A stretch of DNA of 64,000 nt, from NCBI GenBank assembly GCA_046351595.1, contig JAXLYE010000002.1:1304022-1368021 (forward strand). The letters run 5' to 3'. The notes beneath the pieces were generated by a model. The model was not told the DNA's origin. It saw only the letters and a program-made list of their open reading frames with translations, and did no database searches. Positions 6,620 through 53,116 of the stretch are shown piece by piece. How positions within the stretch are numbered: the first letter of the stretch is position 1; every line of letters starts with the position of its first letter. A program made the translations under genes and the position numbers. The stretch is from Polyangia bacterium. GTDB lineage: Bacteria > Myxococcota_A > Polyangia > Palsa-1104 > JAEUJZ01.

Positions 6620-6795
6620 TGGTTCCTCCCATAGGATGAAAGCAGTGGGGACTGTGGGGGCCAGTGTGCACCGACTTGGCGGCTTGGGAGAAAAGAAATC
6701 CACGGTTTTCTCGACCTCGCTCCAGAGTCCGTCAAACACTCGGGTTCCCGCTCCCGAGCGCGCGCAGCGACGGAGGAGAGGCTGCCCGGAGGCCG

Positions 6796-6837
6796 GCTGC
6801 GCCCAGACCGCGCCAGACTGCGCCCAGACCGCGCCAG
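6796..6837. repeat. 21-bp tandem direct repeat x2 (ctgcgcccagaccgcgccaga), with further cccagaccgcgcc copies at about 6841 and 6912
   Basis: Direct reading of the sequence. It lies about 180-300 bp upstream of the MYXO-CTERM gene start. Confidence 0.8.
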
Positions 6838-7114
6838 CCGTTCCCAGACGGAGTCAATGCGGCTTCACGGTGATTTCGGACGGTTCCCAACCGGCTCTCC
6901 AAGACCGCTCCCAGACCGCGCCGCGACGGGTCCGCCCGCTCTCTGCGGGCCCGCGCACGGTCCCGCTCAGCGACGGAATGGCGGATTCAGGAATGCTTTG
7001 GTCCGGTCATGTGCCCAATGTCCGCAGTGCCCCGGTGAACGCAGGTTTCCGTCGAGGCGCCGCGGCTCTGCGCTCCCACGGCGGTGCGGAGCGGGTGCGA
7101 TGCAGAAAGAGTCC

Positions 7115-15660: not shown

Positions 15661-15728
15661 GTTACTCTCTGGCCACTTCCTGTTACTGATTTGTTACTTC
15701 GTCGTTACCGCGGCGCCCGGCCGTTACT
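15661..15728. promoter_or_regulatory. Five direct GTTAC(T/C) repeats in the ccoNO-ccoQ intercistronic region (spacings 21, 11, 12, 18 bp)
   Basis: The pair TGTTActgattTGTTAc is 11 bp centre-to-centre, which resembles ArcA/OmpR-family direct-repeat boxes. Confidence 0.35.
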
Positions 15729-18063
15729 TCCTGGCCTCGGGCGCCGCTGCGGTCGTCGCCGCCGTCGCTGTCACCGCAGAGCCCGGGTTCTTGCCGAGGC
15801 GCTGCAGGTACGCGATGAGCGCGACCATCTCGCTGTCCCATGCAACCGGCGCGCCCTGGCTCGCGAGCTCACTGGCGATGCCCTTGGCCTGGGACTCCAG
15901 GTCGCTGTTCGCGCTCGACAGCTCCGCCGCCGAGTAGGGCACGCCGAGGGTGCGCATCGCGCTCATCTTCACCGTCGTGTCGCCGGTGTCGATCGTGCGC
16001 TGGAGCAGGAACGCGTACGGCGGCATGTTCGAGCCCACCGACGTGACCCGCGGATCGATCAGGTGCTGGTAGTGCCACAGGTGCGAGTACTTGCCGCCGA
16101 CGCGGTGCAGGTCCGGGCCGGTGCGCTTGGAGCCCCACTGGAACGGGTGGTCGTAGATGAACTCTCCCGCGGTGCTCGGCTCGCCGTAGCGCAGCTTCTC
16201 GCCCTGCAGCGGGCGCACCATCTGCGAGTGGCAGACGTAGCAGCCCTCGCGCACGTAGATGTCGCGGCCGTGCAGCTCGAGCGGGCGGTAGGGCGTCTGC
16301 ACCGGGCCGGTGCGCGGCACCGCGCGGTCGACGACCAGCGTCGGCAGGATCTCGGCGACACCGCCGACCAGCACCGCGATGAGCGCCAGCACCGAGAACA
16401 AGAGCGAGCGGCCCTCGAGCACGCGGTGCACGTCGATGCGGCCTCTGTCATCGCGCGGCACGCCGAACACGAACCACGCGGCGACCACCAGGATGACCAT
16501 GCCGGTGATCAGCAGCGTCGCGACCGGGATCTGATCGACCAGGAAGAAGGTGCCGAGGATCACGAAGGCCGCCACCGAGATCAGGATCGGCGTCGAGAAC
16601 ACCAGGCGCGTCCACGGGATCGTCGGGCGCGCCGGCTCGGGCTCGGGGTCGAGCACCTCGACCGTGGTGTCCACCGGCGTGCCGGCGGCGATGGTCTTGC
16701 CGAGGTTCCAGGCCATGAGCAGGAAGCCGACCAGGTACATCGTGCCGCCCACCGCGCGCGTCATGTACAGCGGCCGGATCGCCAGCAGCGTCTCGACGAA
16801 GCTCGGGTAAAGGAGCGCTCCCTCGGAGGTCGTGGCGCGCCACATCAGGCCCTGGGTGATGCCGCTGATCCACATCGAGATCGTGTAGAGCAGGATGCCG
16901 AACGTGCCGAGCCAGAAGTGGAAGTCGGCGGCGGCCTTGCTGTGCAGCGGGCGGTTCCACAGCCGCGGCACCAGGAAGTAGAACATGCCGGCGGCCATGA
17001 AGCCGTTCCAGCCGAGCGCCCCGGTGTGGACGTGGCCGATGATCCAGTCGGTGTAGTGGGCCAGGCCCGAGACGCTCTTGATCGAGAGCAGCGGGCCCTC
17101 GAACGTCGCCATGCCGTAGAACGTCACGCCGGCGATCAGGAACTTGAGGACCGGATCCGTGCGCAGCTTGCCCCAGGCGCCGCGCAGCGTCAGAAGTCCG
17201 TTGATCATGCCGCCCCACGACGGCGCCCACAGCATCAGCGAGAACAGCATGCCCATCGACTGCGCCCAGTCCGGGAGCGCGGTGTAGAGCAGGTGGTGCG
17301 GCCCGGCCCAGATGTACATGAAGATCAGGGCCCAGAAGTGGATGATGCTGAGCCGGTACGAGTACACCGGGCGGCCCGCGGCCTTGGGCAGGAAGTAGTA
17401 CATGATGCCGAGGATCGGGGTGGTCAGGAAGAAGGCGACCGCGTTGTGCCCGTACCACCACTGCACCAGCGCGTCCTGCACGCCGGCGAAGACCGAGTAG
17501 CTCTTGATGCCCTTGCCGATCGGCAGCGCCAGCGAGTTCACGACGTGCAGCACGGCCACGGTCAGGATGGTGGCGATGTAGAACCACAGCGCGACGAACA
17601 GGTGCTCTTCACGGCGGCGCTTCAGCGTTAAGAAAAAGTTGATGCCGAAGGTGATCCACACCAGCGCGATGGCGATGTCGATCGGCCACTCGAGCTCCGC
17701 GTACTCCTTCGACTGGGTGATGCCGAGCGGCAGGGTGATCGCGGCGGCGACGATGATGAGCTGCCAGCCCCAGAAGTGGACCGCGGACAAGAGGTCGCTG
17801 GCCATGCGCGCCTTGCACAGCCGCTGCGTCGAGTAGTAGATGCCGGCGAAGAGCATGTTGCCGACGAACGCGAAGATGACCGCGTTGGTGTGCAGCGGCC
17901 GCAGGCGCCCGAAGCTGAGCCAGGGCGCGAGGTTCAGCTGGTGGAAGGCGAGCTGGCAGGCGATGAACACGCCGACGAGCATGCCCACCGCGCCCCAGAA
18001 GACGGAGGCGAGCAGGAATCGTCTCACAGAGCGATCGTCATAGGTGATGGATACGGGCTTCAT
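15724..18063 (-). CDS. ccoNO: Fused cbb3-type cytochrome c oxidase subunits I and II (CcoN-CcoO)
   Basis: The N-terminal 12-TM heme-copper oxidase segment ([15 protein letters not shown]...) continues in one frame into a CcoO-like monoheme domain ([11 protein letters not shown]...[11 protein letters not shown]). Confidence 0.9.
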
Positions 18064-18221
18064 GGTCCTTCCTCTTGCATCGGGGGCTCCTCCTCCAGCG
18101 GGAGGAGCGAAAGTCGGTCGGAGTGCTCGTGCGTGCGCCGCAGGAACAGCGCGCCGAACAAGAGCGCGAACAGCAGCACGAGGATCAAGCTGACGAACAG
18201 CGTCAGGTAGATGGCGTTCAT
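18060..18221 (-). CDS. ccoS: cbb3 oxidase maturation protein CcoS/FixS (53 aa, single TM)
   Basis: [35 protein letters not shown] is the size and architecture of CcoS. Its stop overlaps the ccoNO start, and its ATG overlaps the ccoI stop (ATGA). Confidence 0.7.
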
Positions 18222-20737
18222 GCGGTCACCTCGGCGGGGGCTGGCAGCAAGCGCGGTGCCTGCCGGAGCGGCGCCTCGCGGGGCGCGGCCTGCGCCTCTG
18301 CGCTGCGGAACGAGCGCAGCGTCGCCAGCACGACCAGTAGGGAGCTCACCGGCATGAGCAGCGCGCAGCGCAGCGGCGTCATCATGCCGGCGAGCGCCAG
18401 CGCGACCACGGCGACGTTGTAGGCGCCGCTCAGGAGCAGGTTGCGGACGATGACGCGGCGCAAGAAGCGCGCGGTCGCGAGCGACTCGGCGATGGGGCCG
18501 AGGCCGTGGCCCAGGAAGTAGAAGTCGGCGCGCGCGGGCAGGGCCGGGCGCTCGGTCGCCGGCGTGCCCGCGCAGAGCGCGGCATGGAAGGCGAGGGCGT
18601 CGTTGATGCCGTCGCCGATCATCATCGTGTCGGGCGAATCGGGCGCGCCGATGCGCTGCACCGCGGCCGCCTTGTCCTCGGGGCGCAGGCCGCCGAGCGC
18701 CTGCTCCGCGGGGACGCCGAGCCGAGTCGCCAGCGCGCTCACCCGCTCGGGCTGATCGCCCGAGAGCAGCCACACCTTGTAGCCGGCCGCGGCGAGCGCA
18801 TCGACCTGGTCGCGCGCGTCCGGGCGCAGCTCCTCGCGGAAGCGGAAGCAGGCGCGGAGCGTGCCCGCGATGCTGAACAAAAGCGCGCCGCCGCTCCCGG
18901 GAGGAGTCGGGGACGCGGTCGTGGCGTCTGCGCCCACGAACTCGGCGGTGCCGAGGCGCACGGCCTGGCCCGCGAGCTCGGCCACGAGGCCGCGGCCCGG
19001 CTCCTCGAGCACCACGGTCGCGGTGTCGAGCACCGGCGGCGCCGCCATCATGCGCACGAGCGCGTCGAGCAGGGCGCGGCTGCGCGGGTGGTTGGAGCGC
19101 GCCACGAGCTGGTACAGGGCGCCGCGCTCGGTCACGCCAAGCGCACGGAGCGCCTCGGGGTTCTCGAGCGCCGGCTCCAGCGCGGTCAGCGTGCCGGTCT
19201 TGTCGAACAGCACCTTGCGCACGCGCAGCGCGCGGTCGAAAAACGTCACGTCGCGGACGAACAGGCCGAGGCGGCGCAGCCGGCCCTGCGCCAGCTCGTA
19301 GGCCAGCGGCGTCGCCACGCCGAGCGCGCACGGGCACGTCACCATGAGCAGCGCCGCGGTCACCTCGAGCGCGCGGGCGCCGTCACGCGGCAGCCACAGC
19401 CCGAGCCCGAGCGCGGCCAGCGCCAGCACGCCGAGCACGTAGTAGCGGCTCAGGTGGTGCCAGAAGTCGCGCCGCGGCTCGCTCGTGCTCGGGTCGCGGC
19501 GCGCGCGCAAAAGCTCGCACAGCGCCGAGGCGCGGAAGTCCTCGGTGGCGCGCAGCCGCACGGCGCGGCCGCCGGCGCTCGCCGCCAGGTTGTGGGCACC
19601 GGCGGGGGCGCGATCGCCGCGCGTGAACAGCCGCGGCTCGGCCTCGCCGCTGATCCACTCCAGCGACAGGAGCGCGCGCTCCTCCAGGCACTCGCACGCG
19701 GTCGGCAGGAGCTCGCCGGGCGCGCACAGGAGCTCTTGGCCCGCGCGCAGCTCGCTCGCCGGCAGCAGGCGCATGCGGCCGTCGCCGTCCACCGCGCGGA
19801 CCACGAAACCGGCGATGCCCTCGTCGCTGAGCAGGACGCGGCGGTTGTGGCTGGCGATGCGCCGCTGGATCAGGCGCCCCATCAGCATGAGCGCGATGAA
19901 GGTCGTCAGCGTGTCAAAGTACGCGGACTGGCCGCCGCGGCTCACAAAGGCCCAGGCGCTGCCCGCGTAGGCCAGCAGCATGCCGAGCGCGATCGGCACG
20001 TCCATGTGCAGGATGCGCCGCCGCAGCGCACCGATCGCCGAGCGGACGAAGACGCTGCCGCCGAGCAGCAGCGCGGCGGTGGCGAGCGCGAAGCTGCCGA
20101 TCGAGAAGATGCGGTACAGGCCCGAGTCCGCGCCGCCGCTGCCGCCACCGTCTTCCAGGCCGAAGTAGATGGCGAACGAAAAGATCATGCTGTTCATGGC
20201 CAGCGCCGCGCACAGGCCGAAGCGCAGCAAGAGGTCATCGCCCTCGTCATCGGGGCGCTTGCGCGGCGGCCCGGCGCGGTAGCCGAACGGCTGCAGCTCG
20301 TCGAGGAAGCGGCCGAGGATGCGGCTGCCCTCGCCGGACTGCCAGAAGACCTCGGCGCGGCCGAGCGCGGGGTTGATGGTGATCGCGCGCGCGCCCGGGA
20401 TGCGGCGGAACAGCCGCTCGATCAGCCACACGCACGCCGCGCACTGCAGGCCCTGCAGATCCAGGGTGAGGCGCGCGGTGCCGCTCTGCGCGCTCTGCTC
20501 CGCTGCCTCGATCAGCGGCGCCAGCCAGGTGCGGCTGTCTTCACCGCGCGCGGAGCCCGGGACCGCCAGCCGCTGCCCGTCGAGCAGATCGTAGAAGCGG
20601 GAGAGGCCGGCCTGCTCGATCAGCTCGTGCGCGGCGCGGCAGCCGGTGCAGCAGTAGGGCGCAGTCGCCGCACCTTTTGCGATCGGGCTGTGACAGTGCG
20701 GACACGTGCTGCGCATCAAAAAACTTCCTTCCAACAA
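18218..20737 (-). CDS. ccoI: Copper-translocating P1B-type ATPase CcoI/FixI
   Basis: An N-terminal Cys-rich metal-binding region is followed by the TM CPC motif (TCPCALGV), DKTGTLT and GDGINDA. Confidence 0.9.
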
Positions 20738-20810: not shown

Positions 20811-21221
20811 TCAGCCGGCCAGGCGGGTGTGCAGGAGCTCCGCCAGCGCCGTCAGGCCATCGACCGCGGTGAACAGGCCGACGACCTTGTCGTTCTGCAT
20901 GACCACCGCGGAGCCGTACTTCTTGGCCGCCATCTCGCGCGCGACCTCGTCGAGCAGCGCGTCGGGAGAGACGGTGTAGACCTCGGTCGACATCGCGTCC
21001 GCGACCGTCACCTGCGCGGGGTCGACGTCCTTGAAGGCCTCGACCATCCGCAGATCCCGATCGCTCAGCAGGCCCACCAGCGTGCCGCCATCGAGCACCG
21101 GCAGGTGGCGGATGTGGTGCTGCTGCATCACCTTGTGCGCGTCGGCCAGCGTCATGCTGGGGCGGATGGTGTGCGGGGTGGTGGACATGTACTTGTGGAC
21201 TCTGGGAATCGGTTTGCTCAT
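20811..21221 (-). CDS. CBS-pair domain protein
   Basis: Two CBS repeats are present (HIRHLPVLDGGTLVGLLSDRDL and GSAVVMQNDKVVGLFTAVD). The RBS is GGAGGAG, and it lies 73 bp upstream of ccoI on the same strand. Confidence 0.8.
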   Translation of the reverse strand: MSKPIPRVHKYMSTTPHTIRPSMTLADAHKVMQQHHIRHLPVLDGGTLVGLLSDRDLRMVEAFKDVDPAQVTVADAMSTEVYTVSPDALLDEVAREMAAKKYGSAVVMQNDKVVGLFTAVDGLTALAELLHTRLAG

Positions 21222-21481
21222 GGCGTGAAGCTCCTCCGCGCCGCCTCTTGCGCATGCGCCATGCCAGCGCGCGCTCGCCGCTCCTCGACGAGCTCGTAGC
21301 GGACGCGTGCCGGAACCGTCACTCCCGCGTAACGATAGGGTGCGCGCGGTAACGCTCCGGGGCGGGAACGTGCCGCGCTCTCTCGACGGGGCGGCGTGGC
21401 CTGGCTCTTGCTTTTCTCAACAGCCATGGCCGCCGCCGTGCGGTAACGCCGGACCCGGAGCCATGCGGGCCCACAGCGCCC

Positions 21482-21517
21482 CTGCCGTGCGCAGGCCCCT
21501 GCCGTGCGCAGGCCCCT
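21482..21517. repeat. 17-19 bp tandem repeat x2 plus a partial copy (gccgtgcgcaggcccct) immediately upstream of the usp gene
   Basis: Direct reading, 20 bp before the usp RBS. The motif GCGGTAACGC also occurs twice in the same divergent region (about 21349 and 21440). Confidence 0.75.
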
Positions 21518-21537
21518 CCCGTGCTTAGGAAGGTTAG

Positions 21538-22119
21538 ATGGAAGCCGACAAGATGACCCTTTTGGTTGGTATCGACTTCAGCGCGTTCTCCGAGCGCGCG
21601 CTGGCCCTCGCCGTCGAGATCGCGGTGCGCATGCGGGCCCGCCTGATCGTCGTCCACGTCCGCGATCTCGGCGTCATCGCGCCGCCGGGTGAGTTCGTGC
21701 CGGCGCCGGTCCTGACCGCGCTGATCGAGCGCTTCAATGAAGAAGGGCTCGCGGTGCGCAACCAGTGCAACGAGATGTGCCAGCGCATCGTGAAGGACCG
21801 CGTGGACGCCACCGTGCACGTGCTGACCGGGCCGGCCGCCGAGTCGATGGTGACCGCCATCAAGGCCCTCAAGCCGGACCTGGTCGTCGTCGGCAGCCAC
21901 GGCCGCGGCGCGCTCAAGCGGCTCTTGCTCGGCAGCGTCTCGACGGCGCTGTGCCAGCGCAGCCCGGTGCCGGTGCTGGTGGTGCCGCCCGCGGAGGCGG
22001 CGCAGCCCGAGCACCTCTCGGGAACGCCGGAAGCGCCCGCGGCACCGCAGCGTGACGGCGCAGGCGGCACCGCAGCGGAACACGCGGCCGCGGTAACCGC
22101 GGACGGCCAGTCGGGATAG
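21538..22119 (+). CDS. Universal stress protein (UspA family)
   Basis: LLVGIDFS...LIVVHV...VVGSHGRGALKRLLLGSVS...PVLVV. The RBS is GGAAGG. Confidence 0.85.
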   Translation: MEADKMTLLVGIDFSAFSERALALAVEIAVRMRARLIVVHVRDLGVIAPPGEFVPAPVLTALIERFNEEGLAVRNQCNEMCQRIVKDRVDATVHVLTGPAAESMVTAIKALKPDLVVVGSHGRGALKRLLLGSVSTALCQRSPVPVLVVPPAEAAQPEHLSGTPEAPAAPQRDGAGGTAAEHAAAVTADGQSG

Positions 22120-22168
22120 GATGGAGCTCGCGCCCGCGCGGGCGCGGCGGCGCGCAGGCGACCGCTCC

Positions 22169-22267
22169 TGAAACCGGGTGAAACATCCTGAAACGAGTTC
22201 TCGACGGCGTGAAACAAGTTGAGCGATCGCTGAAACAGAAGTGAAACAGAGCGAGACAGGGTGAAAT
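22169..22267 (+). promoter_or_regulatory. Array of seven same-orientation (G/C)TGAAA(C/T) repeats in helical phase, upstream of the CoA-transferase gene
   Basis: Copies start at 22169, 22179, 22189, 22210, 22231, 22242 and 22262. The spacings are 10, 10, 21, 21, 11 and 20 bp. Confidence 0.6.
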
Positions 22268-22384
22268 AGCGTGAGCGGCCGAGCGCCCGGCGGGCCTTTT
22301 TGAGGCACCTGGGCACGCGCACGGCCTGAAGCCATGGACCGCGGCGCGGCTCTTGCCGGCGCGGCGCAGAGGAAAAAGGACAAG

Positions 22385-23698
22385 ATGAGCGAGCCCGCAG
22401 CCGCGACCCCGCCCCCGGGAGCCGCATCCAAGTACGTGAGCGCCGAGGAGGCGCTGCGCCTCGTGCGCTCGGGGATGCGCGTGTACATCCACACCGCCGC
22501 CGCGGCGCCGCACCGCCTGATCAGCGCCCTGGTCGCGCGCTCGGGCGAGCTGCACGGCGTCGAGATCGTGCACCTGCACACCGAAGGCCCGGCGCCCTAC
22601 ATCCTGCCGCAGCACCTGCAGGCGTTCCACGCCAGCGCGCTGTTCGTCGGCCCGAACCTGCGTGACGCGGTCAACGACGGGCGCGCCGACTACATCCCGG
22701 TGTTCCTCAGCGAGGTGCCGCGGCTGTTCCGGCGCGGCGTGCTGCCGCTCGACGTGGCGCTCTTGCAGGTCTCGCCGCCCGACGTGCACGGCTACTGCAC
22801 GCTCGGCATCTCGGTCGACGTCGCGCGCGCGGCCGCGGACTGTGCGCGCATCCTCATCGGCCAGGTCAACCCGCACATGCCGCGCAGCCACGGCGACGGC
22901 ATGCTGCACATGAGCCGCTTCGCCGCGCTGGTCGACTCCGACGATCCGCTGCCCGAGCACAAGCCGGCGCCGCTCAGCGAGGCCGAGCGCGCGATCGGCC
23001 GCGGCGTCGCCTCTCTGGTCGAGGACGGCGCCACCCTGCAGATGGGCATCGGCGCCATCCCCGACGCGGCGCTCGCCGCCCTCGGCTCGCACCGCCGCCT
23101 CGGCGTGCACAGCGAGATGGTCTCGGACGGCGTCATCGACCTGGTCGAGCGCGGCGTCATCACCGGCGAGAACAAGCGCACCCACCCGGGCGTCCTGGTC
23201 GCCGCCTTCGCCGTCGGCAGCCGCCGCCTGTACGACTTCATCGACGACAACCCCGGGGTCAAGATGCTCGACGTCGGCTACGTCAACGACACCGACGTCA
23301 TCCGCCGCAACCCGCAGGTCACCGCCATCAACAGCGCGCTCGAGGTCGACGTCACCGGCCAGATCTGCGCCGACTCGATCGGCGAGCGCCAGTTCTCCGG
23401 TGTCGGCGGCCAGATGGACTTCATCCGCGGCGCGGCGCTGTCCGAGAACGGCCGGCCGATCATCGCGCTGCCGTCGGTGACCTCGCGCGGCGAGTCGCGC
23501 ATCGTCGCGCACCTCAAGACCGGCGCCGGCGTGACGACGACGCGCGCGCACGTGCACTACATCGTGACCGAGTTCGGCGTCGCCTATCTGTACGGCAAGA
23601 GCCTGCGCGAGCGCGCGCGCCTGCTCATCGACATCGCCCATCCCGACCACCGCGAAGCCCTGAGCCGTGCCGCCCATGAGCGCTTTGGCCGTCTGTAA
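22385..23698 (+). CDS. Acetyl-CoA hydrolase/transferase family protein (4-hydroxybutyrate/acetate CoA-transferase-like)
   Basis: The architecture matches AcetylCoA_hydro plus its C-terminal domain over the full length (GMRVYIHTAAAAP...EVDVTGQICADSIG...). The start is chosen at the second ATG with RBS AGGAAAAAGGA; an alternative start is at 22334. Confidence 0.8.
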   Translation: MSEPAAATPPPGAASKYVSAEEALRLVRSGMRVYIHTAAAAPHRLISALVARSGELHGVEIVHLHTEGPAPYILPQHLQAFHASALFVGPNLRDAVNDGRADYIPVFLSEVPRLFRRGVLPLDVALLQVSPPDVHGYCTLGISVDVARAAADCARILIGQVNPHMPRSHGDGMLHMSRFAALVDSDDPLPEHKPAPLSEAERAIGRGVASLVEDGATLQMGIGAIPDAALAALGSHRRLGVHSEMVSDGVIDLVERGVITGENKRTHPGVLVAAFAVGSRRLYDFIDDNPGVKMLDVGYVNDTDVIRRNPQVTAINSALEVDVTGQICADSIGERQFSGVGGQMDFIRGAALSENGRPIIALPSVTSRGESRIVAHLKTGAGVTTTRAHVHYIVTEFGVAYLYGKSLRERARLLIDIAHPDHREALSRAAHERFGRL

Positions 23699-24305
23699 AG
23701 CCGGACCCCACCCGGGCGCGCGCATCGTGCTCACCGGCGGCCCCGGCGCCGGCAAGACCGCCGTGCTCGAGATCGCGCGCAAGAGCTTCTGCAGCCGCAT
23801 CGCGTTTCTGCCCGAGGCCGCGAGCATCGTCTTCGGCGGCGGCTTCTGGCGGCGGCAGACGCAGGCCGGGCGCAAGGCCGCGCAGCGCGCGATCTACTAC
23901 ATCCAGCGCGAGCAGGAGCGCATGGTGCAGGACGAGCCCGAGTTCGGATCGGTCCTGTGCGATCGCGGCACCCTCGACGGGCTGGCGTACTGGCCGGGGG
24001 AGGAGGCGACGTTCTGGCAGGAGCTCGGCACCACGCGCGAGGCGGAGCTTTCGCGCTACCACGCGGTCATCCACCTGCGCACGCCGCCGCCCGATCGCTA
24101 CAACCACCAGAACCCGCTGCGCACCGAGGACGCGGTGACCGCGCACGCCATCGATCAGCGCATCGCGCTGGCCTGGGAGGGCCACAAGAACCGCGCCTTC
24201 ATCGAGAGCAGCGCCGACTTCGTCGAGAAGGTGCAGCGCGCCATCGCCCTCATCAAGGACAACCTGCCGGAGTGCTGCCGGCAGCACCAGCTCGTCCTGC
24301 CGTAG
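23676..24305 (+). CDS. Stand-alone P-loop ATPase (AAA_28-like)
   Basis: Walker A is LTGGPGAGKT. Its start overlaps the CoA-transferase 3' end; the exact start (23667 or 23676) is uncertain. Confidence 0.65.
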   Translation: MSALAVCKAGPHPGARIVLTGGPGAGKTAVLEIARKSFCSRIAFLPEAASIVFGGGFWRRQTQAGRKAAQRAIYYIQREQERMVQDEPEFGSVLCDRGTLDGLAYWPGEEATFWQELGTTREAELSRYHAVIHLRTPPPDRYNHQNPLRTEDAVTAHAIDQRIALAWEGHKNRAFIESSADFVEKVQRAIALIKDNLPECCRQHQLVLP

Positions 24306-24345: not shown

Positions 24346-25047
24346 TTGGGCATGAAGATCCTCATCGTTGAAGACGAAGAGCGCATGGCGCGCATGCTGC
24401 GCCGCGGCCTGCTCGAAGAGGGCCACCAGGTCGATCTGTGCGCGACCGCGGACGCGGCGGCCGAGCAGGCGCTGAGCATCCCGTACGACGTGATCGTGCT
24501 CGACTGGATGCTGCCGGATCAGGACGGCGTCACGCTCCTGCGCGCGTGGCGGCAGCGCGGGCTGCGCACGCCGGTCCTGATGCTGACCGCGCGCGGCACC
24601 ACGGGCGAGAAGGTCACCGGCCTGCGCGCCGGCGCCGACGACTACCTGACCAAGCCGTTCGACTTCGACGAGCTTCTGGCGCGGCTGGAGGGCCTGCACC
24701 GCCGCGGCGGCGCGCACGAGCCCACGGCCGGCCTGGGCGCGGCCAGCCTCGATGCGCGGCGGCGGGTGCTGCGCGGCGCCGGCGGCGAGGTGGCGCTGAC
24801 CGCGCGCGAGTTCGCGCTGCTCGAGGAGCTGCTCGGGCACCGCGGCGAGGTGCTGACGCGCTCGCGCCTGCTCGGCACGGTGTGGGGCTCGGACCTCGAC
24901 GTCACGCCCAACGTGGTCGACGTGTACATCGGCTACCTGCGGGCCAAGCTCGAGCAGGTCGGCGCGCGCGGCGTGTCGCTGCAGACCGTGCGCGGCATCG
25001 GCTACCGCCTGGTCGTCGACAGCGACGAGAGGACGCAGCGCTCGTGA
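24346..25047 (+). CDS. OmpR/PhoB-family DNA-binding response regulator (heavy-metal CusR/CzcR-like)
   Basis: The receiver has ILIVEDE, DVIVLDWMLP and TKPF. The winged-helix output has LTAREFALLEEL...VYIGYLRAKL. Confidence 0.9.
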   Translation: MGMKILIVEDEERMARMLRRGLLEEGHQVDLCATADAAAEQALSIPYDVIVLDWMLPDQDGVTLLRAWRQRGLRTPVLMLTARGTTGEKVTGLRAGADDYLTKPFDFDELLARLEGLHRRGGAHEPTAGLGAASLDARRRVLRGAGGEVALTAREFALLEELLGHRGEVLTRSRLLGTVWGSDLDVTPNVVDVYIGYLRAKLEQVGARGVSLQTVRGIGYRLVVDSDERTQRS

Positions 25048-26474
25048 GGCTGGCGACGCGCATGTGGCTGCTCGGCGCGCTGGTGCCGACGCTGGGCGCG
25101 CTGCTGCTGCTGGTCGTCGCCGGCGGCTGGTTCCGCCGCCACCTCGAGGCCGCGCTCGATCGCGCGCTGCTCGCGCAGGCCGCGGTGGAGAGCGTGAGCC
25201 TGTTCGACGGTCCCGGCGGCCGCGTCCACCTGCACATGGCGACGTCGCCGCTGGTCGACAGCGTGCGGCCGTTCGCGCCGACCGGCGACCTGTTCGGGCC
25301 CGACGGGCGCCTGGTCATGAGCTACCCGCCGCGGCTGCCCGGCGCGGTGGCCGACGTGCCGCACCTGCCGGCGCAGCCGGTGCAGCCCGGCCAGCCGCCG
25401 CGCCTTGGCACCCACACCGAGCGCAGCGGCGCGCGCTTCCGCGAGCTGGTGGTGGCGGTGGCGGCGCCGCTGCAGCCGTCGTCTCCCTCGTCGCCGGGCG
25501 GCCTGTATACGCTGCGGCTCGCCGCGTCGCTCGACCAGCTCGATCGCTCGACGCGGGTGTTCTACCAGACGACGCTCAGCCTGGTGGCGCTGTTCGGCGG
25601 GCTGCTGTTCGCGCTGCAGGCGGTGCAGGCGCGGCGGCTCGGGGCGCGGCTGCGCGGCATCGGCGCGCACATGGCGGCGCTGCGCGAGGGCAACCTCGAT
25701 CAGCCGCTGGCGCCGGACCCGACGCACGACGAGGTCGGCGAGCTGCGCGCGGTGATCGCCGAGGCCACGGCCAAGCTGAGCGCCGCGCGAAAGGGGCAGG
25801 AGCGCTTCCTCGCCGACGCCGCGCACGAGCTGCGCACGCCGCTCGGGCTGATGCGCACCAGCCTGGATCTGGCGCTGCGCCGGCCGCGCTCTCCCGAGGA
25901 GCTGCGCGCGACGCTGCAGGAGGTGCGCAGCGAGGTGGTGCGCCTGGGCGCGCTGTGCCAGCGGCTGCTCGATCGCTCGGCGCTGGCGCAGGCCGACTGG
26001 GATCGGCGCGCGGTCGAGCTGCGGGCGCTGGTCGCCGAGGCGGCGCTGGCTGCGCGCGCGCAGGCCGAGGAGCGCGGCCTGCTGATCGAGATCGAGGGCC
26101 CGGACGCGCTGACCCTGCGCGGCCACGCGCCGTCGCTGCGGCAGGCGCTCGACAACCTGCTCAGCAACGCCCTGCGCTTCGCCCCCGCGGGGACGCGCAT
26201 CGTGGTGCAGCTCGCGCGGGCCGGGGCGAGCGTGGCGGTCGCGGTCTGCGACGAGGGACCGGGCGTGCCGCCGGCGCAGCGCCCGCACCTGTTCTCGCCC
26301 TTCCACCGCGGCGCGCCAAGAGGCGGTGAAGCGGGCGCCCCGAGCGAGACGTTCGGGCACGGCCTGGGCCTGAGCATCGCGCGCGAGATTGCGACGCGGC
26401 ACGGCGGGCGCCTCTACCTGGACGAGCAGGCGCCGCGCGGCGCGCGCTTCGTGCTGGAGCTGCCGAGCGGCTGA
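25044..26474 (+). CDS. Sensor histidine kinase with two TM segments and a periplasmic loop (CusS/CzcS-like)
   Basis: Its GTG start overlaps the response-regulator stop (GTGA). HisKA has ADAAHELRTPL. HATPase_c has LDNLLSNALRF...GHGLGLSIAREIATRHGG. Confidence 0.85.
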   Translation: MRLATRMWLLGALVPTLGALLLLVVAGGWFRRHLEAALDRALLAQAAVESVSLFDGPGGRVHLHMATSPLVDSVRPFAPTGDLFGPDGRLVMSYPPRLPGAVADVPHLPAQPVQPGQPPRLGTHTERSGARFRELVVAVAAPLQPSSPSSPGGLYTLRLAASLDQLDRSTRVFYQTTLSLVALFGGLLFALQAVQARRLGARLRGIGAHMAALREGNLDQPLAPDPTHDEVGELRAVIAEATAKLSAARKGQERFLADAAHELRTPLGLMRTSLDLALRRPRSPEELRATLQEVRSEVVRLGALCQRLLDRSALAQADWDRRAVELRALVAEAALAARAQAEERGLLIEIEGPDALTLRGHAPSLRQALDNLLSNALRFAPAGTRIVVQLARAGASVAVAVCDEGPGVPPAQRPHLFSPFHRGAPRGGEAGAPSETFGHGLGLSIAREIATRHGGRLYLDEQAPRGARFVLELPSG

Positions 26475-26588
26475 GCCCGTTCGCACGGGCGCCGAGCTCG
26501 CGCATTTCTCCGACGGTAGAGCCGCTGCCTGAGAGGTTTCTTATGCAGCGCTCATGCAGCCCCGGGCGGCGGCTGCCAGGCTGCAGGC

Positions 26589-27854
26589 ATGAGGTGCAGG
26601 TTCGCGCTCGGGCTGCTGCTGCTGACGCTCGCCGCCCACACCGTGGCGGTGCCCGCGCACGCGGGGCCGCCGCCGCTCACGCTCGCCGAGGCGCTGCGAC
26701 AGGCCGCGGGCGCTCCGGTGGTGCGGGCGCGCGAGGCGGCGCTGCGGGTCAAGCGCACGCTCGACGCGGAGCTCGGGACGCTCGTGCACAACCCGCAGGT
26801 CAGCGGTCAGCTCGGCTACCGGCGCGAGCAGGGCAGCGGCGGCTTCGAGGGGCAGCTGGCCGTGCAGCAGGGCTTCAGCCTGTCCGGCCACGCCGCCGCG
26901 CGCCGGCGCAGCGCCACGCGGGAAGAGGAGGTGCTCGGCGCCGAGGTCGAGGCGACGCGGCTCTTGCAGCAGCTCGCGACCGCGGCGCTGTGGGCCGAGC
27001 TGTGGGCGGCGCAGCAGGCCGAGCGTCAGGCCGAAGAAGAGGTGGCGCTCACGGCGCAGCTGCTCGAGCGCACGGAGCGGCTGGCGCGCGCCGGCGCGCT
27101 GACCCAGGTCGACGTCGCGTCTGCGCAGAGCTACCTCGCGGAGGTGCGCGCCCGGCGGCACGGCATCGAGGGCGAGGTCTTCGATCGCGGGCTCGAGCTG
27201 GCGCGCGCGCTCGGCGCCTCCGAGCCGCTGCGGGCGAGCGATGGGGCGACGGTGGTGCCGCTGCCGCCGCTCGCGGACGCGCTGCTCGAGGAGGCGCTGC
27301 GCCGGGCGCCGCTGCTGCCGGGTCCCGCGGTGCTGCAGCGCGCCGTGGCGGCGGAGCGGGCGCGCGCGGCGGAGTCGCTGGCGCAGCGCGGCACGCAGGT
27401 GTGGCTCGGGGTCCTGGGGCTGCACGAGCCCAGCACGCCGTGGGCGGCGCTCGGCACCTTCACGCTCAGCGTGCCGCTGTTCGAGCGCGGGCAGCGCGAG
27501 CGTGCCGATCAGCTCGCGGCGGCGGCACGGCTCGCGGTCGAGGCCGCGGGCGCGGGCGTGGCGGCGCAAGCAACGCTGCGCGGCGCCTTCCACGAGGTCG
27601 AGCACTACACCGCGCTCGCCCGTCACGTCGTCGAGCAGCTGGTGCCCGCGGCCGAGCGTGAGGTGGCGCTGCGCGAGCGCCTCTTGCAGGTCGGGGACGG
27701 CACGGTGCTGGAGGTGCTGGTGGCGCGGCGGGCGCTGGTCGCGGCGCGGGCGCAGGCGGCGCGCGTGCAGGCCGTGCGCATCACGAGCGAGCAGCGGCTG
27801 GCGCTGTACCTCGGCCAGCTCGGCCTGCTCGGTGAAGAAGGAGAGAAGCCATGA
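26589..27854 (+). CDS. Outer-membrane efflux protein (TolC/CzcC family)
   Basis: A signal peptide is followed by two OEP repeats rich in coiled-coil Ala/Leu/Arg. Confidence 0.8.
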   Translation: MRCRFALGLLLLTLAAHTVAVPAHAGPPPLTLAEALRQAAGAPVVRAREAALRVKRTLDAELGTLVHNPQVSGQLGYRREQGSGGFEGQLAVQQGFSLSGHAAARRRSATREEEVLGAEVEATRLLQQLATAALWAELWAAQQAERQAEEEVALTAQLLERTERLARAGALTQVDVASAQSYLAEVRARRHGIEGEVFDRGLELARALGASEPLRASDGATVVPLPPLADALLEEALRRAPLLPGPAVLQRAVAAERARAAESLAQRGTQVWLGVLGLHEPSTPWAALGTFTLSVPLFERGQRERADQLAAAARLAVEAAGAGVAAQATLRGAFHEVEHYTALARHVVEQLVPAAEREVALRERLLQVGDGTVLEVLVARRALVAARAQAARVQAVRITSEQRLALYLGQLGLLGEEGEKP

Positions 27855-29020
27855 CAGAGACGAGCGCGTTCGGCGCGCGGGGTGTGGTGCTGCGCATCGG
27901 CTTAGGGCTCGGGCTCGTGCTGTGCGGCGCGAGCGCGGCGTGCAGCTCGTCGCACGGCAGCGCGGCGCCGCTGGCCCAGAGCGCGGCGCCCCCGCCCGAG
28001 CCGCAGAGCGTGACGACCGCCTGGGTCGCGACGCAGCCGGCCGCGGGCGCGGTGCTCTCGGAGCTGCCGGCGCGGGTGCTGATCCCGCCGGGCGCGCGCG
28101 CCGAGATCATGGCGCCCTTCCGCGCCCAGGTCGCGCAGATCCTGGTCGAGCCCGGGCAGCGTGTGAGCGCCGGGACGCCGCTGGTCACGGTGCTGATGCC
28201 CGAGGTGCTGCGGGCCGCGGGCGCGCTGCAGGCGGCGGCGCTGCGCATCACCGCCTACGAGCAGCGCCGCGATCAGCTCGCGGTGCTGCGCAGCGAGGGG
28301 CTGGCCCGGCTCGCGGACGCGGCGGAGGTGGCGGCGTCGCTGGCCGATGCGCGCGCCGCGCAGCGGGAGGCGCTGGCGGTGCTGCGGGCGGCGGGCCTCG
28401 GTGCCGCGGAAGCGGCCGCGCTCGCCGAGGGCAGCGGCCGCGCCGCGCTGCGCAGCCCCATCGACGGCATCGTCACCGAGGTCGGCGCCGCCCTCGGCCA
28501 GATCCAGGAGCCGGGCGCCGCGCCGCTCGTGCGCATCGCGGGGCAGGGCGCGGCGCGGGTCGAGGCGCGGCTGCCGCCGCTCGGCACCGCCGCGCTGCGC
28601 TACGAGCTTGTGACCGCGGACGGCGGGCGCTGGCCGCTGCGGCTGCGCGAGCGCGCGCCTGTGCTCGATCCGCGCGACGGCACCGCGCTGGCGTGGCTGG
28701 AGCCGGAGGCCGGTGCGGCGCCGCTGCTGGGCGGGCAGACCGGGCGCGTGCGCGTGCTCCTGGCCGAAGACGACGCGGCCCGGGGCGCGGACGTGCCGCT
28801 GCTCTTGCCGGCGCGCGCGGTGCGCCTGAGCGCGACGCAGGCCGAGGTGCGACGGCGGCGCGGCGACGAGCCGGCGGCGTGGGTACCGGTGACGGTGCTG
28901 GCCAGCGCGGTCGGGCAGTCCGTGGTGCGCGGCCGCGAGCCGGGCGCGCTCGTGCCCAGCGATCGGGTCGCCGCCGACGCCGCGCAGGTCGATGCCGAGG
29001 GCGGCGGAGGTGCGCCGTGA
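27851..29020 (+). CDS. Efflux RND periplasmic adaptor (membrane fusion protein, CzcB/CusB-like)
   Basis: The topology is HlyD-like with a lipoyl/beta-barrel hairpin, and the gene is translationally coupled to the genes on either side. Confidence 0.8.
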   Translation: MTETSAFGARGVVLRIGLGLGLVLCGASAACSSSHGSAAPLAQSAAPPPEPQSVTTAWVATQPAAGAVLSELPARVLIPPGARAEIMAPFRAQVAQILVEPGQRVSAGTPLVTVLMPEVLRAAGALQAAALRITAYEQRRDQLAVLRSEGLARLADAAEVAASLADARAAQREALAVLRAAGLGAAEAAALAEGSGRAALRSPIDGIVTEVGAALGQIQEPGAAPLVRIAGQGAARVEARLPPLGTAALRYELVTADGGRWPLRLRERAPVLDPRDGTALAWLEPEAGAAPLLGGQTGRVRVLLAEDDAARGADVPLLLPARAVRLSATQAEVRRRRGDEPAAWVPVTVLASAVGQSVVRGREPGALVPSDRVAADAAQVDAEGGGGAP

Positions 29021-32000
29021 GCGAGCTCCCTGTGGCCGCTGATCTGGCTGAAGATGCGACCCCGGCCCGCGGCTCGGCGGTCGGCGCGCTGGTGCGGCTG
29101 GCGGTGCGGAAGCGCGGGCTGGTGCTGCTGGCGACCGCGCTCTTGATCGCCGCCGCGATCTTCGGCACAAGCCGCCTCAAGCTCGACGCGCTGCCCGACG
29201 TCACCAACAACCAGGTGCTGGTGCTGACCCGCGCGCCGGGCCTGTCTCCCGAGGAGATCGAGCGGCTCGTGACGCGCCCGCTCGAGACCGCGCTCGGCGG
29301 CATGCCCGGCCTCGTCGAGCTGCGCAGCCTCTCGCGCTACGGGATTTCGGCGCTGACCGCGATCTTTGCCGATGACGTGCCACCGCTCGCGGCGCGCCAG
29401 ATCGTGCAGGAGCGGCTGGTCACGGTGGCGCTGCCGCCCGGCGTCGACGTGCCCGCGCTCGGCCCGCTGACCGGCGGGCTGGGCGAGGTCTTCCACTTCG
29501 CGCTCGCCTCGCCGCAGCGCACGCCGGCCGAGCTGCTCGAGCTGGCGACGCTCAAGGTCGCGCCGCGGCTGCGCTCCGTCCCGGGCGTCGTCGAGGTCAA
29601 CACCTGGGGCGGCAAGGAGCGGCGGCTCGAGGTGCGCGCGGACGCGGTGGCGCTGGCGGCGCGCGGCCGGACGCTCGGTGAGCTGGAGCGGGCGCTCGCC
29701 GACGCCATCGGGTCCACCGCGGGCGCGAGCCTGGCCGCGGGCTCGGGGCAGGCGCTCCTGCGCGCGGTGTTCCGCCCGCGCACGCCGGCCGAGCTGTCGG
29801 CGCTCCTCGTGCCCGCTGACGGCGCCGCCCGCGTCCGCATCGGCGACGTCGCCACCGTCGTCGAGGGCGAGGCGCCGCGCCTGGGAGCGGCGACGCGCGA
29901 CGGCCGCGGCGAGGTCGTCTACCTGATGGCGCAGATGCTGCGCGGCGAGAACGCGCTGGAGGTGCTGCGCGGCGTCCACGCCCGCATGACCGAGCTGCGC
30001 GCCCTGCTGCCGCCCGACGTCCGCATCGAGGTCATCTACGACCGCAGCGTGCTCGTGAATGCGACGCTGCGCACCGTCGGCAAGAACCTGCTCGAGGGCG
30101 GCCTGCTGGTCGGCGCGGTGCTGCTGCTGCTCCTGGGCAGCCTGCGCGCCGGGCTCTTGGTCGCGCTGGCGATCCCGCTGTCCATGCTCGGTGCGGCGTC
30201 GGCGATGGCGCTGCTCGGCGTGCCGGGCAACCTGATGAGCCTGGGCGCCGTCGACTTCGGCCTGCTGGTCGACGGCGCGGTGGTGCTCGTCGAGCACCTG
30301 TTCCACCCCGGCCGCCCGCGCGCGCCCGGCGAGCCGCCCGTGCCCTGGGCCGCCACCCTCGCCGAGCGCGCGGCCGAGGTGGCGCAGCCGGTGCTCTTCT
30401 CGGTGCTGATCATCGTGCTGGTGTACCTGCCGGTGCTGCTGCTCGGCGGCGTCGAGGGCAAGATGTTCCGGCCGATGGCGGTGACCGTGGTGTGCGCGCT
30501 CCTGACGTCGCTGGTGCTGGCGCTGACCGCGATCCCGGCGGCGGCGGTCCTGGTGCTGCGCCCGCAGGATCTCTTGCCGCGCCGGCCGCCGCTGCTGCTG
30601 CGCGTGGCGCAGCGCGTATACCGGCCGCTGCTCGCCGCAGCGCTGGCCCGGCCGCTATACGTCGCGCTCGCGGCGGCGGCGCTGCTCGCAACAGGCGGCG
30701 CGCTGTACGTGCGCGCGGGCAGCGAGTTCATCCCGCAGCTCGACGAGGGCGACCTGGTCATTCAGACTACGCGGGCCGCCGACATCTCGCTCGACAGCGC
30801 GGTGCGCGCGGCGGGCCGGCTCGAGACCACGCTGCGCGCCGTGCCCGAGGTGCAGGCGGTGGTCTCGCGCATCGGCAGCCCCGCGGTCGCGACCGACATC
30901 ATGGGCCTGGAGCAGGCCGACGTCTTCGTCTCGCTGCGGCCGCGCAGCGGCTGGCGCCCGGGCCTCACCCGCGACGCGCTCATCGCCGAGCTGCAGCACC
31001 GCCTCGCAGCCGGCGCGCCCGGCGGCGAGCCCTCGTTCACGCAGCCGATCCAGATGCGCTTCAACGAGATCCTCGCCGGCGCCGTGACCGATGTCGTGAT
31101 CAGCGTATACGGAGAGGACCTCGCGCAGCTGCAGCGCCTCGCCGAGTCGGTGGCGCGCGCCTGCGCCGCGGAGCCCGGGGCCGCGGACGTGCGCGTGCTG
31201 GCGCCGCCGACCGTGCCGCTGATCGAGGTCAGGCCGCGCCTGCTCGATGCGGCGCAGGCAGGGCTTCTGGCCGGTGACGTGCTGGCCGCCACCGAGGCGC
31301 TGCGCAGCGGCCGCCTGGTCGGCACGAGCTTCGACGGGCCGGTGCGCCTGCCGGTGGTGCTGCGCCTGGGTGCGAGCGAGCCGGACGCGTTCGCGCTGCC
31401 GCAGGTGGCGCTGCCGCTCGGCGGAGCCGGTACCGTGTCGCTCGGGCGCGTCGCGGACATCGAGCAGAAGGACACGCCCGCGCTCATCCACCGCCACAAC
31501 GGCGAGCGGCGCCTGCTCGTCGGCTTCAACGTGCGCGGCGCGGACCTCGGCTCGCTGCTCGAGCGCGCCGAGGCGCGGGTGCAGCGCGAGGTCAAGCTGC
31601 CGCCCGGCTACCGCCTGAGCTGGGGCGGTCAGTACGAGACGCTGCAGGATGCGCGCGCCCGCCTGCGTGTGCTCATCCCGTCGGTGCTGCTGCTGATCGT
31701 GGGGATCCTGTGGCGGCTGTTCCGCAGCCTGCGCGCGGCGCTCATCCTGTTCCTGGCGGTGCCGTTCGCGGGGACCGGCGGCATGATCGCGCTCGCGTGC
31801 CGCGGCCTGCCGGTTTCGATCTCGGCGGCCGTAGGCTTCATCGCGCTCTCGGGCATCGCGGTCTTGAACGGCGTGGTGCTGATGGCGCGCCTGCTCGAGC
31901 TGGAGCGCTCCGGGCGCTCGCCGCGCGAGGCCGCGGCCGAGGCTGCGAGCACGCGCATGCGGCCGGTCCTGATGACGGCGCTGGTCGCGGCGCTGGGCTT

Positions 32001-32148
32001 CGTGCCGATGGCGCTGGCCGAGGGCGTGGGCGCCGAGGTGCAGCGGCCGCTGGCGACCGTGGTGGTCGGCGGCCTGGTCACCTCGACGGCGCTGACGCTG
32101 CTGGTGCTGCCGAGCCTGTACCCGCTGCTGGCGCGGCGCCGGCGCTGA
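29017..32148 (+). CDS. Heavy-metal efflux RND permease (CzcA/CusA, HME family)
   Basis: Its GTG start overlaps the adaptor stop. It has 12 TM helices and two large periplasmic loops. DALPDVTNNQVLVLTRAPGLSPEEIE is typical of CzcA/CusA. Confidence 0.85.
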   Translation: MSELPVAADLAEDATPARGSAVGALVRLAVRKRGLVLLATALLIAAAIFGTSRLKLDALPDVTNNQVLVLTRAPGLSPEEIERLVTRPLETALGGMPGLVELRSLSRYGISALTAIFADDVPPLAARQIVQERLVTVALPPGVDVPALGPLTGGLGEVFHFALASPQRTPAELLELATLKVAPRLRSVPGVVEVNTWGGKERRLEVRADAVALAARGRTLGELERALADAIGSTAGASLAAGSGQALLRAVFRPRTPAELSALLVPADGAARVRIGDVATVVEGEAPRLGAATRDGRGEVVYLMAQMLRGENALEVLRGVHARMTELRALLPPDVRIEVIYDRSVLVNATLRTVGKNLLEGGLLVGAVLLLLLGSLRAGLLVALAIPLSMLGAASAMALLGVPGNLMSLGAVDFGLLVDGAVVLVEHLFHPGRPRAPGEPPVPWAATLAERAAEVAQPVLFSVLIIVLVYLPVLLLGGVEGKMFRPMAVTVVCALLTSLVLALTAIPAAAVLVLRPQDLLPRRPPLLLRVAQRVYRPLLAAALARPLYVALAAAALLATGGALYVRAGSEFIPQLDEGDLVIQTTRAADISLDSAVRAAGRLETTLRAVPEVQAVVSRIGSPAVATDIMGLEQADVFVSLRPRSGWRPGLTRDALIAELQHRLAAGAPGGEPSFTQPIQMRFNEILAGAVTDVVISVYGEDLAQLQRLAESVARACAAEPGAADVRVLAPPTVPLIEVRPRLLDAAQAGLLAGDVLAATEALRSGRLVGTSFDGPVRLPVVLRLGASEPDAFALPQVALPLGGAGTVSLGRVADIEQKDTPALIHRHNGERRLLVGFNVRGADLGSLLERAEARVQREVKLPPGYRLSWGGQYETLQDARARLRVLIPSVLLLIVGILWRLFRSLRAALILFLAVPFAGTGGMIALACRGLPVSISAAVGFIALSGIAVLNGVVLMARLLELERSGRSPREAAAEAASTRMRPVLMTALVAALGFVPMALAEGVGAEVQRPLATVVVGGLVTSTALTLLVLPSLYPLLARRRR

Positions 32149-52860: not shown

Positions 52861-53116
52861 GCTGGGTTCCGCGGTCGCCCGACGGTGCCGGCTCGGTTCG
52901 CGGAGCCGGTCGGGTCGACGCTGCCGATAAGGTGCCTTCGGGTTGCTGAATAAATACCGCGCACTTTCCGGGGCCGGCGAAAAAACACCGCGAAAAACGG
53001 CCGTGGCGGCCTGCCTGCCAGGTGTGCTGCCGTCGAACCGGACTCAGCTTCTCGACGCGACAGGTGCGCGCGAGCCTTGCACAACGCGGTTGAAGGCGCG
53101 AGGCGACCTTGCTCAA

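Follow-up and report, generated by a model that had tools for sequence, protein, structure and literature searches.

A helically phased array of TGAAAC direct repeats ahead of a CoA-transferase gene in Polyangia, a candidate multi-site operator

What is a row of short direct repeats, all facing the same way and set in register with the turns of the DNA helix, doing in front of a CoA-transferase gene? The repeats lie in a 265-bp spacer (positions 22120-22384) of a stretch of 64,000 nucleotides from a Polyangia bacterium, which we call the window. The spacer separates a universal stress protein gene (Usp; 21538-22119, + strand) from a gene of the acetyl-CoA hydrolase/transferase family (22385-23698, + strand), the first gene 3' of the array. 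An initial annotation, made from the letters alone, had placed a direct-repeat array upstream of a CoA-transferase gene, and the gene calls bear this out. The reading that we favour, with a probability of about one half, is that the spacer carries a DNA array occupied by a regulator that binds direct repeats; the greater part of that share goes to the response regulator encoded at 24352-25047 as the binder.

The + strand at 22160-22280 reads ccTGAAACcgggTGAAACatccTGAAACgagttctcgacggcgTGAAACaagttgagcgatcgcTGAAACagaagTGAAACagagcgagacagggTGAAATagcgtgagcgg. TGAAAC starts at 22169, 22179, 22189, 22210, 22231 and 22242, and TGAAAT at 22262; the base 5' of each of these seven cores is C or G, and the core-to-core spacings are 10, 10, 21, 21, 11 and 20 bp. 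The coordinates, sequence and common orientation of the seven repeats had been reported exactly. Cores 1 (22169-22174), 2 (22179-22184), 3 (22189-22194) and 4 (22210-22215) are followed by cores 5 and 6, which together form the two-site unit TGAAACAGAAGTGAAAC (22231-22247). Decayed units that keep the phase fill the 21-bp gaps and the 3' end, namely, TCTCGAC (22199-22205), TGAGCG (22220-22225), CGAGAC (22252) and a final TGAGCG (22272-22277). The whole array comprises 11 head-to-tail units of 10-11 bp (22168-22277, + strand), with the consensus S-TGAAAC-A followed by 3-4 variable bases. The array region is 54% GC, compared to 72% for the genome and the window.

Such an arrangement is not expected by chance. 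TGAAAC occurs nine times in the 64-kb window, counting both strands (5.6 in shuffles); six of the nine copies fall inside 79 bp, and the remaining three are all within coding sequence. In a test made conservative on purpose, only the local 125 bp were shuffled, with dinucleotides preserved, and six or more copies of any 6-mer arose in 4 of 20,000 shuffles. The seven sites have a phase coherence of R = 0.98 at a period of 10.4 bp, matched by 0 of 20,000 random placements of seven sites in 100 bp, in agreement with the claim that all copies are helically phased. Tandem Repeats Finder did not report the array because its spacers have diverged. No second array was found in the window, even with 3 mismatches allowed per two-site unit; the weak resemblances seen at 6603 and 6851-6878, a coding start and matches with three mismatches, were put down to chance. 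Other repeats were seen in the window. TGAAGC occurs four times at an exact 21-bp spacing (53347-53415) in the N-terminal part of a gene for a sigma54 enhancer-binding protein (52931-54928), where it is probably a 7-residue protein repeat, and a tandem GGCGCGGTCTGGGCGCAG-type repeat lies at 6800-6850 (- strand), in the upstream region of the gene for a large DUF11 protein (4172-6853, - strand).

The array is shared with close relatives. Related contigs were drawn from members of >90% protein clusters and represent five further organisms or strains, all metagenomic: L210, L211, L212 (= L213), L214 (partial) and L295 (partial). A further contig, L081, comes from the organism of the window itself and, being identical, is uninformative. 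The CoA-transferase gene was compared with that of the window for two of these and is 94% (L210) and 97% (L211) identical in nucleotides, with 89-92% identity at third codon positions. The spacer and the array are at the same place in all five relatives. The four complete copies have 6, 6, 6 and 6 perfect TGAAAC cores, and L295 (803-912) has eight perfect cores in ten consecutive, very regular units, spaced by 10/11 bp throughout and running into the contig end. This expanded array establishes that copy number is polymorphic within the clade. In all six loci the cores are confined to the + strand. The consensus of 34 cores is an 8-bp site, S-TGAAAC-A, followed by 3-4 unconstrained bases; position -1 is occupied by C (17 cores), G (15), A (1) or T (1).

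More distant relatives have no array. Loci at 84-85% protein identity keep the order cbb3-CBS-Usp-CoA-transferase (L089) or Usp-CoA-transferase-AAA_28 (L083-L088), with Usp abutting the CoA-transferase gene, no array and no regulator or kinase downstream. Among 80 genome loci with 61-71% identical CoA-transferases, neither the Usp synteny nor the array was found, and BLAST searches against plasmids and phages gave no similarity. A scan of viral contigs for a pattern of three cores gave unrelated hits among the matches listed.

Within the clade, the cores and the bases between them have evolved very differently. At orthologous positions of the window, L211 and L212, 0 of 24 core columns vary, compared to 20 of 40 spacer columns (Fisher p = 1e-5), and core 1 is among the invariant ones; with the decayed pair of the window counted, the figures are 3 of 36 core and 20 of 44 spacer columns (p = 4e-4). 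Indels in the spacers of the array are of +/-1 bp only, compared to 12-21 bp in the downstream linker. Duplication copies spacers too and so cannot explain invariant cores beside diverged spacers; the cores are under purifying selection. The sites nonetheless come and go. Where the window has TCTCGAC, the relatives have TCTGCGAC; where L211, L212 and L214 have the perfect pair CTGAAACAGGGTGAAAC, the window has the decayed orthologues CGAGAC and TGAAAT (22252-22267), adjoined by a new pair (22231-22247) opposite alignment gaps in L211 and L212. This new pair looks like a 21-bp duplication in the window lineage. The L295 array is largely a 21-bp two-site super-repeat, CTGAAACAGAGTGAAACGCYC. Judged from these alignments, the turnover of copies proceeds through duplication of 21-bp blocks, each with two sites. 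The array, its phasing, its conservation and its turnover can be read directly from the DNA, as can the gene context.

The outgroup loci L083-L089 suggest where the array came from. Usp is preceded by a conserved sigma54-type promoter, TGGCCYGSCTCTTGCT (TGGCCTGGCTCTTGCT; 21397-21412, score 10/12), which is found in every clade member and has the form TGGCTTCGCTCTTGCA in the outgroup (L089 7063-7241 region). The outgroup Usp ends 14-27 bp 5' of the CoA-transferase gene. Since the promoter is present in the outgroup as well, the ancestral Usp-CoA-transferase pair was probably one sigma54 operon, now interrupted by the spacer. The Usp protein has changed at the same junction: that of the outgroup (L083 3-782; L089 7321-7986) has a C-terminal CxxCGH...CxxCG zinc-ribbon-like tail, which the array clade lacks, its place being taken by a low-complexity Ala/Pro/Gly-rich tail and the array-bearing spacer. 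No homology was found between the array region and the coding sequence of the outgroup Usp tail, and homology between the window and the outgroup ends at 21995, the end of the Usp domain. Two further features of the Usp upstream region were noted. GGTAACG motifs flank the sigma54 promoter at 21329, 21349 and 21443 (within 21329-21447), with two palindromes, GTTACC-N4-GGTAAC, as the outgroup counterpart; they are probably a set of enhancer-binding-protein sites serving an operon for hypoxia or stress. Further on, ahead of the Usp start codon, the leader (21480-21525) that follows the sigma54 promoter has the tandem repeat CCCCTGCCGTGCGCAGG twice, and the outgroup leader (L089 7247-7286) has a different repeat, CCCGGGACAG, four times at the same place.

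We propose that the array is a cis-regulatory element at the level of DNA, an operator or enhancer, of at least six head-to-tail S-TGAAAC-A sites, one per helical turn, built on a 21-bp unit of two sites. Cooperative occupation, on a single helical face, would be by a regulator whose head-to-tail dimers bind direct repeats, most likely a winged-helix protein of the OmpR/PhoB type. The site format favours this type (8 conserved bp with 2-3 free ones, a centre-to-centre register of 10-11 bp, a dimer unit of 21 bp and further sites one to two turns off). Direct repeats of a 5-8-bp half-site at 10-11 bp, as expected of such operators, are present, and a two-site unit of about 21-22 bp is seen as CTGAAACAGAGTGAAACGCYC in L295, as the pair CTGAAACAGGGTGAAAC in L211, L212 and L214 and as the 21-bp insertion in the window. 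The first candidate is the OmpR/PhoB-family response regulator (Response_reg plus Trans_reg_C; 24352-25047, + strand), encoded with its cognate histidine kinase (HAMP-HisKA-HATPase; 25044-26474, + strand) about 2 kb 3' of the array, and 95-100% identical in L210 and L214. Its start had been placed at 24346, which is a TTG; ATG 24352 (MKILIVEDE, as called in the relatives) is most likely the start instead. The array and the regulator-kinase-efflux genes occur together, both being present in the clade and both absent at the equivalent positions in L083-L088 and L089. The identity of the binder is inferred, as are action at the level of DNA and an effect that may be activation, repression or a block to read-through from Usp.

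The genes downstream of the array, for the CoA-transferase, an AAA_28 P-loop protein (23667-24305, + strand, overlapping the CoA-transferase gene), the regulator and the kinase, appear to form one transcription unit. The regulator and kinase genes follow the array in the same orientation, with overlaps or short gaps, and the kinase start, GTG 25044, overlaps the stop codon of the regulator (GTGA). The 40-60-bp gap ahead of the regulator is not conserved, so the regulator gene probably has no promoter of its own and is co-transcribed with the CoA-transferase gene. The array would let the two-component system control its own operon along with the CoA-transferase. As a lineage-specific element, it would have arisen at the split of the ancestral sigma54-driven Usp-CoA-transferase operon, with selection holding about six perfect sites while single copies are born by 21-bp duplication and then decay.

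Several observations weigh against this proposal. The distance from the last core to the ATG is 108, 115, 115, 126 or 138 bp, which gives no fixed helical register with the leader, and in L210 the array is split into two sub-clusters 46 bp, or 4.4 turns, apart. The 10/21-bp phasing could in part be a legacy of the tandem-duplication unit, and the co-occurrence of array and regulator is a single phylogenetic event. No sigma70-type promoter was detected in 21400-23000, and the least conserved part of the spacer is where a promoter abutting the array should lie. Two GC-rich hairpins that directly follow the Usp stop codon (22129-22165, + strand; -26.9 kcal/mol) lack a U-tract, so the array may be transcribed. 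The regulator scores 153.8 bits with the NCBIfam OmpR model, under its cut-off of 331, and is not an OmpR orthologue; its top NCBIfam match is a heavy-metal regulator subfamily, at 184.9 bits with a cut-off of 279. It best fits efflux/heavy-metal pairs and adjoins an RND operon, and its main targets may lie elsewhere. GAAAC arrays were absent from 80 loci of 39-61% identical regulators among the matches listed; since binding specificity changes over such distances, the argument is a weak one. The initial annotation had expected an OmpR/PhoB-like regulator or a nucleoid protein. The format of the sites upholds the first as a class of element, while orthology to OmpR itself falls with the scores just given. 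Its comparison with E. coli OmpR sites fared in the same way: TGAAACATC, at core 2 (22179-22187), is a 9-mer contained in the C1 OmpR site of E. coli ompC (PMC2586830), and the protein encoded nearby is a different member of the family.

Multi-repeat operators of the OmpR/PhoB family (ArcA, OmpR at ompF and ompC, PhoB at pho boxes and Streptomyces PhoP) have a common format of head-to-tail repeats of 10-11 bp with a two-site unit of about 21 bp, and, like the array, they mix strong and weak sites and have variable extra sites one to two turns away. ArcA sites comprise 2-5 direct repeats at an 11- or 22-bp spacing (PMC4173790), and the array is longer than this usual range, with 6-10 perfect sites over 80-105 bp. 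It differs further in its perfectly conserved core, which is degenerate in OmpR/PhoB operators, and in having no recognisable adjoining sigma70 promoter; the neighbouring regulator is under the NCBIfam cut-offs for OmpR, ArcA and PhoB alike and is an orthologue of none of them. The GlnR boxes of actinobacteria share with the array a GAAAC pentamer, an 11-bp period and tandem boxes, and GlnR, like the proposed binder of the array, is of the OmpR/PhoB type. In these boxes an a-site, gTnAc, alternates with a b-site, GaAAc, over 6-nt spacers, and the GAAAC b-site is the strong one, in tandem 11-bp arrays (PMC3087709). The array does not follow this alternation: it has no GTnAC a-site, and its weak in-phase units are TGAGCG, CGAGAC and TCGAC. 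The host is a myxobacterium of the Polyangia, with no identified GlnR orthologue, and the likeness to GlnR is one of site format and not of shown homology. A literature search found nothing tying TGAAAC direct repeats to a myxobacterial regulator.

The rest of the spacer bears on the alternatives. The post-Usp hairpins are unexceptional for this GC content (z = -0.49), are kept in L211 and L212, differ in L210 and may serve to end Usp transcription or in RNA processing. The array is separated from the leader by a fast-evolving linker (22278-22329, + strand) of 52-70 bp with large indels between relatives. It contains a T5 run (22297-22301) and a sigma54-like GGCACG-N4-CGGC (22312-22325), both specific to the window. 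A role in termination or attenuation was rejected for the hairpin with its T5 run (22277-22301), since its fold (-11.9 kcal/mol) is no better than that of shuffles and the T5 is absent from L210, L211, L212 and L214, and the sigma54-like element was rejected as a promoter because it is not conserved in the relatives. A terminator scan found no intrinsic terminator after the array. The last 55 nt before the ATG (22330-22384, + strand) are a conserved noncoding leader, with a hairpin or palindrome (22340-22366) followed, 3 nt further on, by the Shine-Dalgarno region of the CoA-transferase gene, GAGGAAAAAGGA. The hairpin has 10 invariant pairs, with variable bases only in the loop (TCTT in the window and TCCG in the relatives). 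It might stabilise the 5' end of the mRNA, mark a site of processing or serve as the operator of a repressor. ATG 22334 was rejected as a gene start: a 1-nt indel in an A-run disrupts the reading frame of relatives, and the ATG itself is missing from L210.

The leader is central to a reading in which a sigma54 enhancer-binding protein would use the array as its upstream activating sequence, with a -24/-12 promoter of the CoA-transferase gene in the leader (CGGCGCGGCTCTTGCC, 22342-22357) and the array about 100-200 bp upstream assembling the activator oligomer. We consider this unlikely. The neighbouring Usp gene does have its clearly conserved sigma54 promoter, with which the leader element of the window has GGCTCTTGC in common; the variable distance from array to leader would suit activation by looping; and tandem repeats have been described as binding sites of myxobacterial activators (PMC9765219). 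The leader element, however, matches at 9/12 positions in the window and at 7/12 in the relatives, which have CGGC at -12 and keep GG-N10-GC, and matches of at least 9/12 are about as frequent in the GC-rich window as chance would give (47 observed and 40 expected). Its two variable bases sit exactly in the loop of the invariant 10-bp hairpin, so the conservation of the leader is better explained by the hairpin than by a promoter. An outgroup locus has an activator gene nearby, and the window has one as well (52931-54928), but this lies 30 kb off, and there is none in the string of genes from Usp to the RND pump. Slightly less probable is that the array acts as RNA. Usp and the CoA-transferase would still be co-transcribed, and an oligomeric RNA-binding protein, bound or titrated by the UGAAAC repeats between the two cistrons, would govern how the downstream one is processed, stabilised or translated; the leader hairpin would be the 5' stabiliser of the processed mRNA. 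The 14-27-bp gap of the outgroup, and hence an ancestral operon, would suit this, as would the missing U-tract after Usp, the lack of a conserved promoter between array and leader, the single strict orientation of all cores and the invariant hairpin just 5' of the Shine-Dalgarno region. A register of 10.4-10.6 nt, on the other hand, has no rationale in single-stranded RNA, and we know of no RNA-binding protein with a UGAAAC motif. An Rfam scan of 21500-23000 at E <= 10 gave noise and no relevant match, no conserved RNA structure was found (alifold covariation term, +1.9), and the folding energy is no better than that of shuffles (z = -0.64); long-range pairing of the array flanks, as suggested by inverted repeats I4 and I7 and by the minimum-energy fold, was rejected on the same z of -0.64 and the lack of covariation.

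Partition and repressor proteins of the ribbon-helix-helix class typically use arrays of 10-11-bp direct repeats, with cooperative binding and with 20-bp units of two 10-bp half-repeats. Many short one-turn direct repeats are likewise seen in parC of plasmid R1, bound by ParR, in parC of pSK41, in the heptads of omega protein and with CdbA of Myxococcus. The array could accordingly belong to a structural nucleoprotein complex of a protein outside two-component systems, be it a ribbon-helix-helix protein of the parC or CdbA kind, ParB on half-parS sites or a nucleoid protein drawn to an AT-richer island, as the 54% GC of the region in a 72% GC genome might suggest; we regard this as very unlikely. 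CdbA does bind a direct repeat one helical turn apart, but its motif is GC-rich (PMC7156744). ParB binds the half-parS GTTTCAC in P. aeruginosa (PMC5961200), the complement of which is GTGAAAC; only about half of the cores, however, carry the required G at -1, and C is as common there as G (17 and 15 of 34), so the half-parS heptamer is not the conserved unit. The sites, moreover, form arrays of direct repeats and not palindromes. Unlike the ribbon-helix-helix systems, it is chromosomal and intergenic between metabolic and stress genes (CBS, Usp, CoA-transferase and AAA_28), with no par or ribbon-helix-helix gene nearby and no plasmid or phage similarity. The least probable reading in our view has no specific binder at all, the array being a neutral minisatellite, or static curvature from phased A3 tracts, left after replacement of the Usp tail. 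The copy number is dynamic, with clear recent 21-bp duplications in L295 and the window, and the array segment ranks 37th of 6386 for predicted curvature, in the top 0.6% of the window. Drift or duplication would nonetheless treat cores and spacers alike, in contrast to the core-specific conservation at orthologous positions, and perfect cores are held at six in four genomes despite the turnover. The curvature, as predicted by a wedge model, is modest, at 54 degrees over 140 bp, is equalled by 16% of shuffles and ranges over 32-65 degrees in the relatives.

A more speculative extension, which we hold to be doubtful, takes the array as part of a recent module that split the sigma54-driven Usp-CoA-transferase operon. 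A protein filament on 6-10 phased sites, or the repeats in RNA, would act as a tunable roadblock or insulator that gates read-through into the CoA-transferase, regulator and kinase genes, its strength being set by copy number (six in four genomes and ten or more in one) via 21-bp slippage. If true, the array would be an evolvable dial of the contingency type and not a classical promoter-proximal operator.

In the wider neighbourhood, on the - strand upstream of Usp, are a cbb3 oxidase with its assembly genes (15724-18063), a P-type ATPase (18218-20737) and a CBS-domain protein (20811-21221); the CcoN and CcoO subunits of the oxidase are fused in a single 779-amino-acid open reading frame (15724-18063), and the same fusion is found in L089. 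The Usp (Pfam PF00582, E = 4e-29) has an exact match in NCBI, a protein from a Polyangia metagenome-assembled genome, and the CoA-transferase (Pfam PF13336 and PF02550) is likewise 100% identical to such a protein; it resembles 4-hydroxybutyrate or butyryl-CoA:acetate CoA-transferases, its top NCBIfam match being under the cut-off. The Polyangia genome in NCBI, which encodes MFO0574847 and MFO0574848, has the two genes on a 1.6-Mb contig. The kinase gene is followed by an outer-membrane factor, a probable adaptor and an RND pump (26589-32148, + strand). In the spacer between kinase and efflux genes (26504-26530) are ATTTC and GTTTC, on the - strand GAAAT and GAAAC, 22 bp apart. The pair precedes the efflux operon, which one would expect to be a target of the regulator; the first motif is not conserved, the second is GTCTC in L210 (7818-7822), and the pair is probably chance.

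As an element, the array is of an ordinary kind and reveals no new principle. What is notable is its lineage-specific birth at a split operon and a visible turnover by duplication and decay at a constant number of perfect sites. If the operator reading is right, the locus would be a clean natural example of the birth and upkeep of a multi-site operator: within about 5% divergence, sites duplicate in pairs, decay and are replaced while the number of perfect sites stays constant, and the element sits at the very place where an older operon was broken up and acquired a two-component system on its downstream side. The locus would also provide, in S-TGAAAC-A at 10-11 bp, a recognition sequence that can be tested for a Polyangia regulator; in this uncultured group, hardly any regulatory sites are known.

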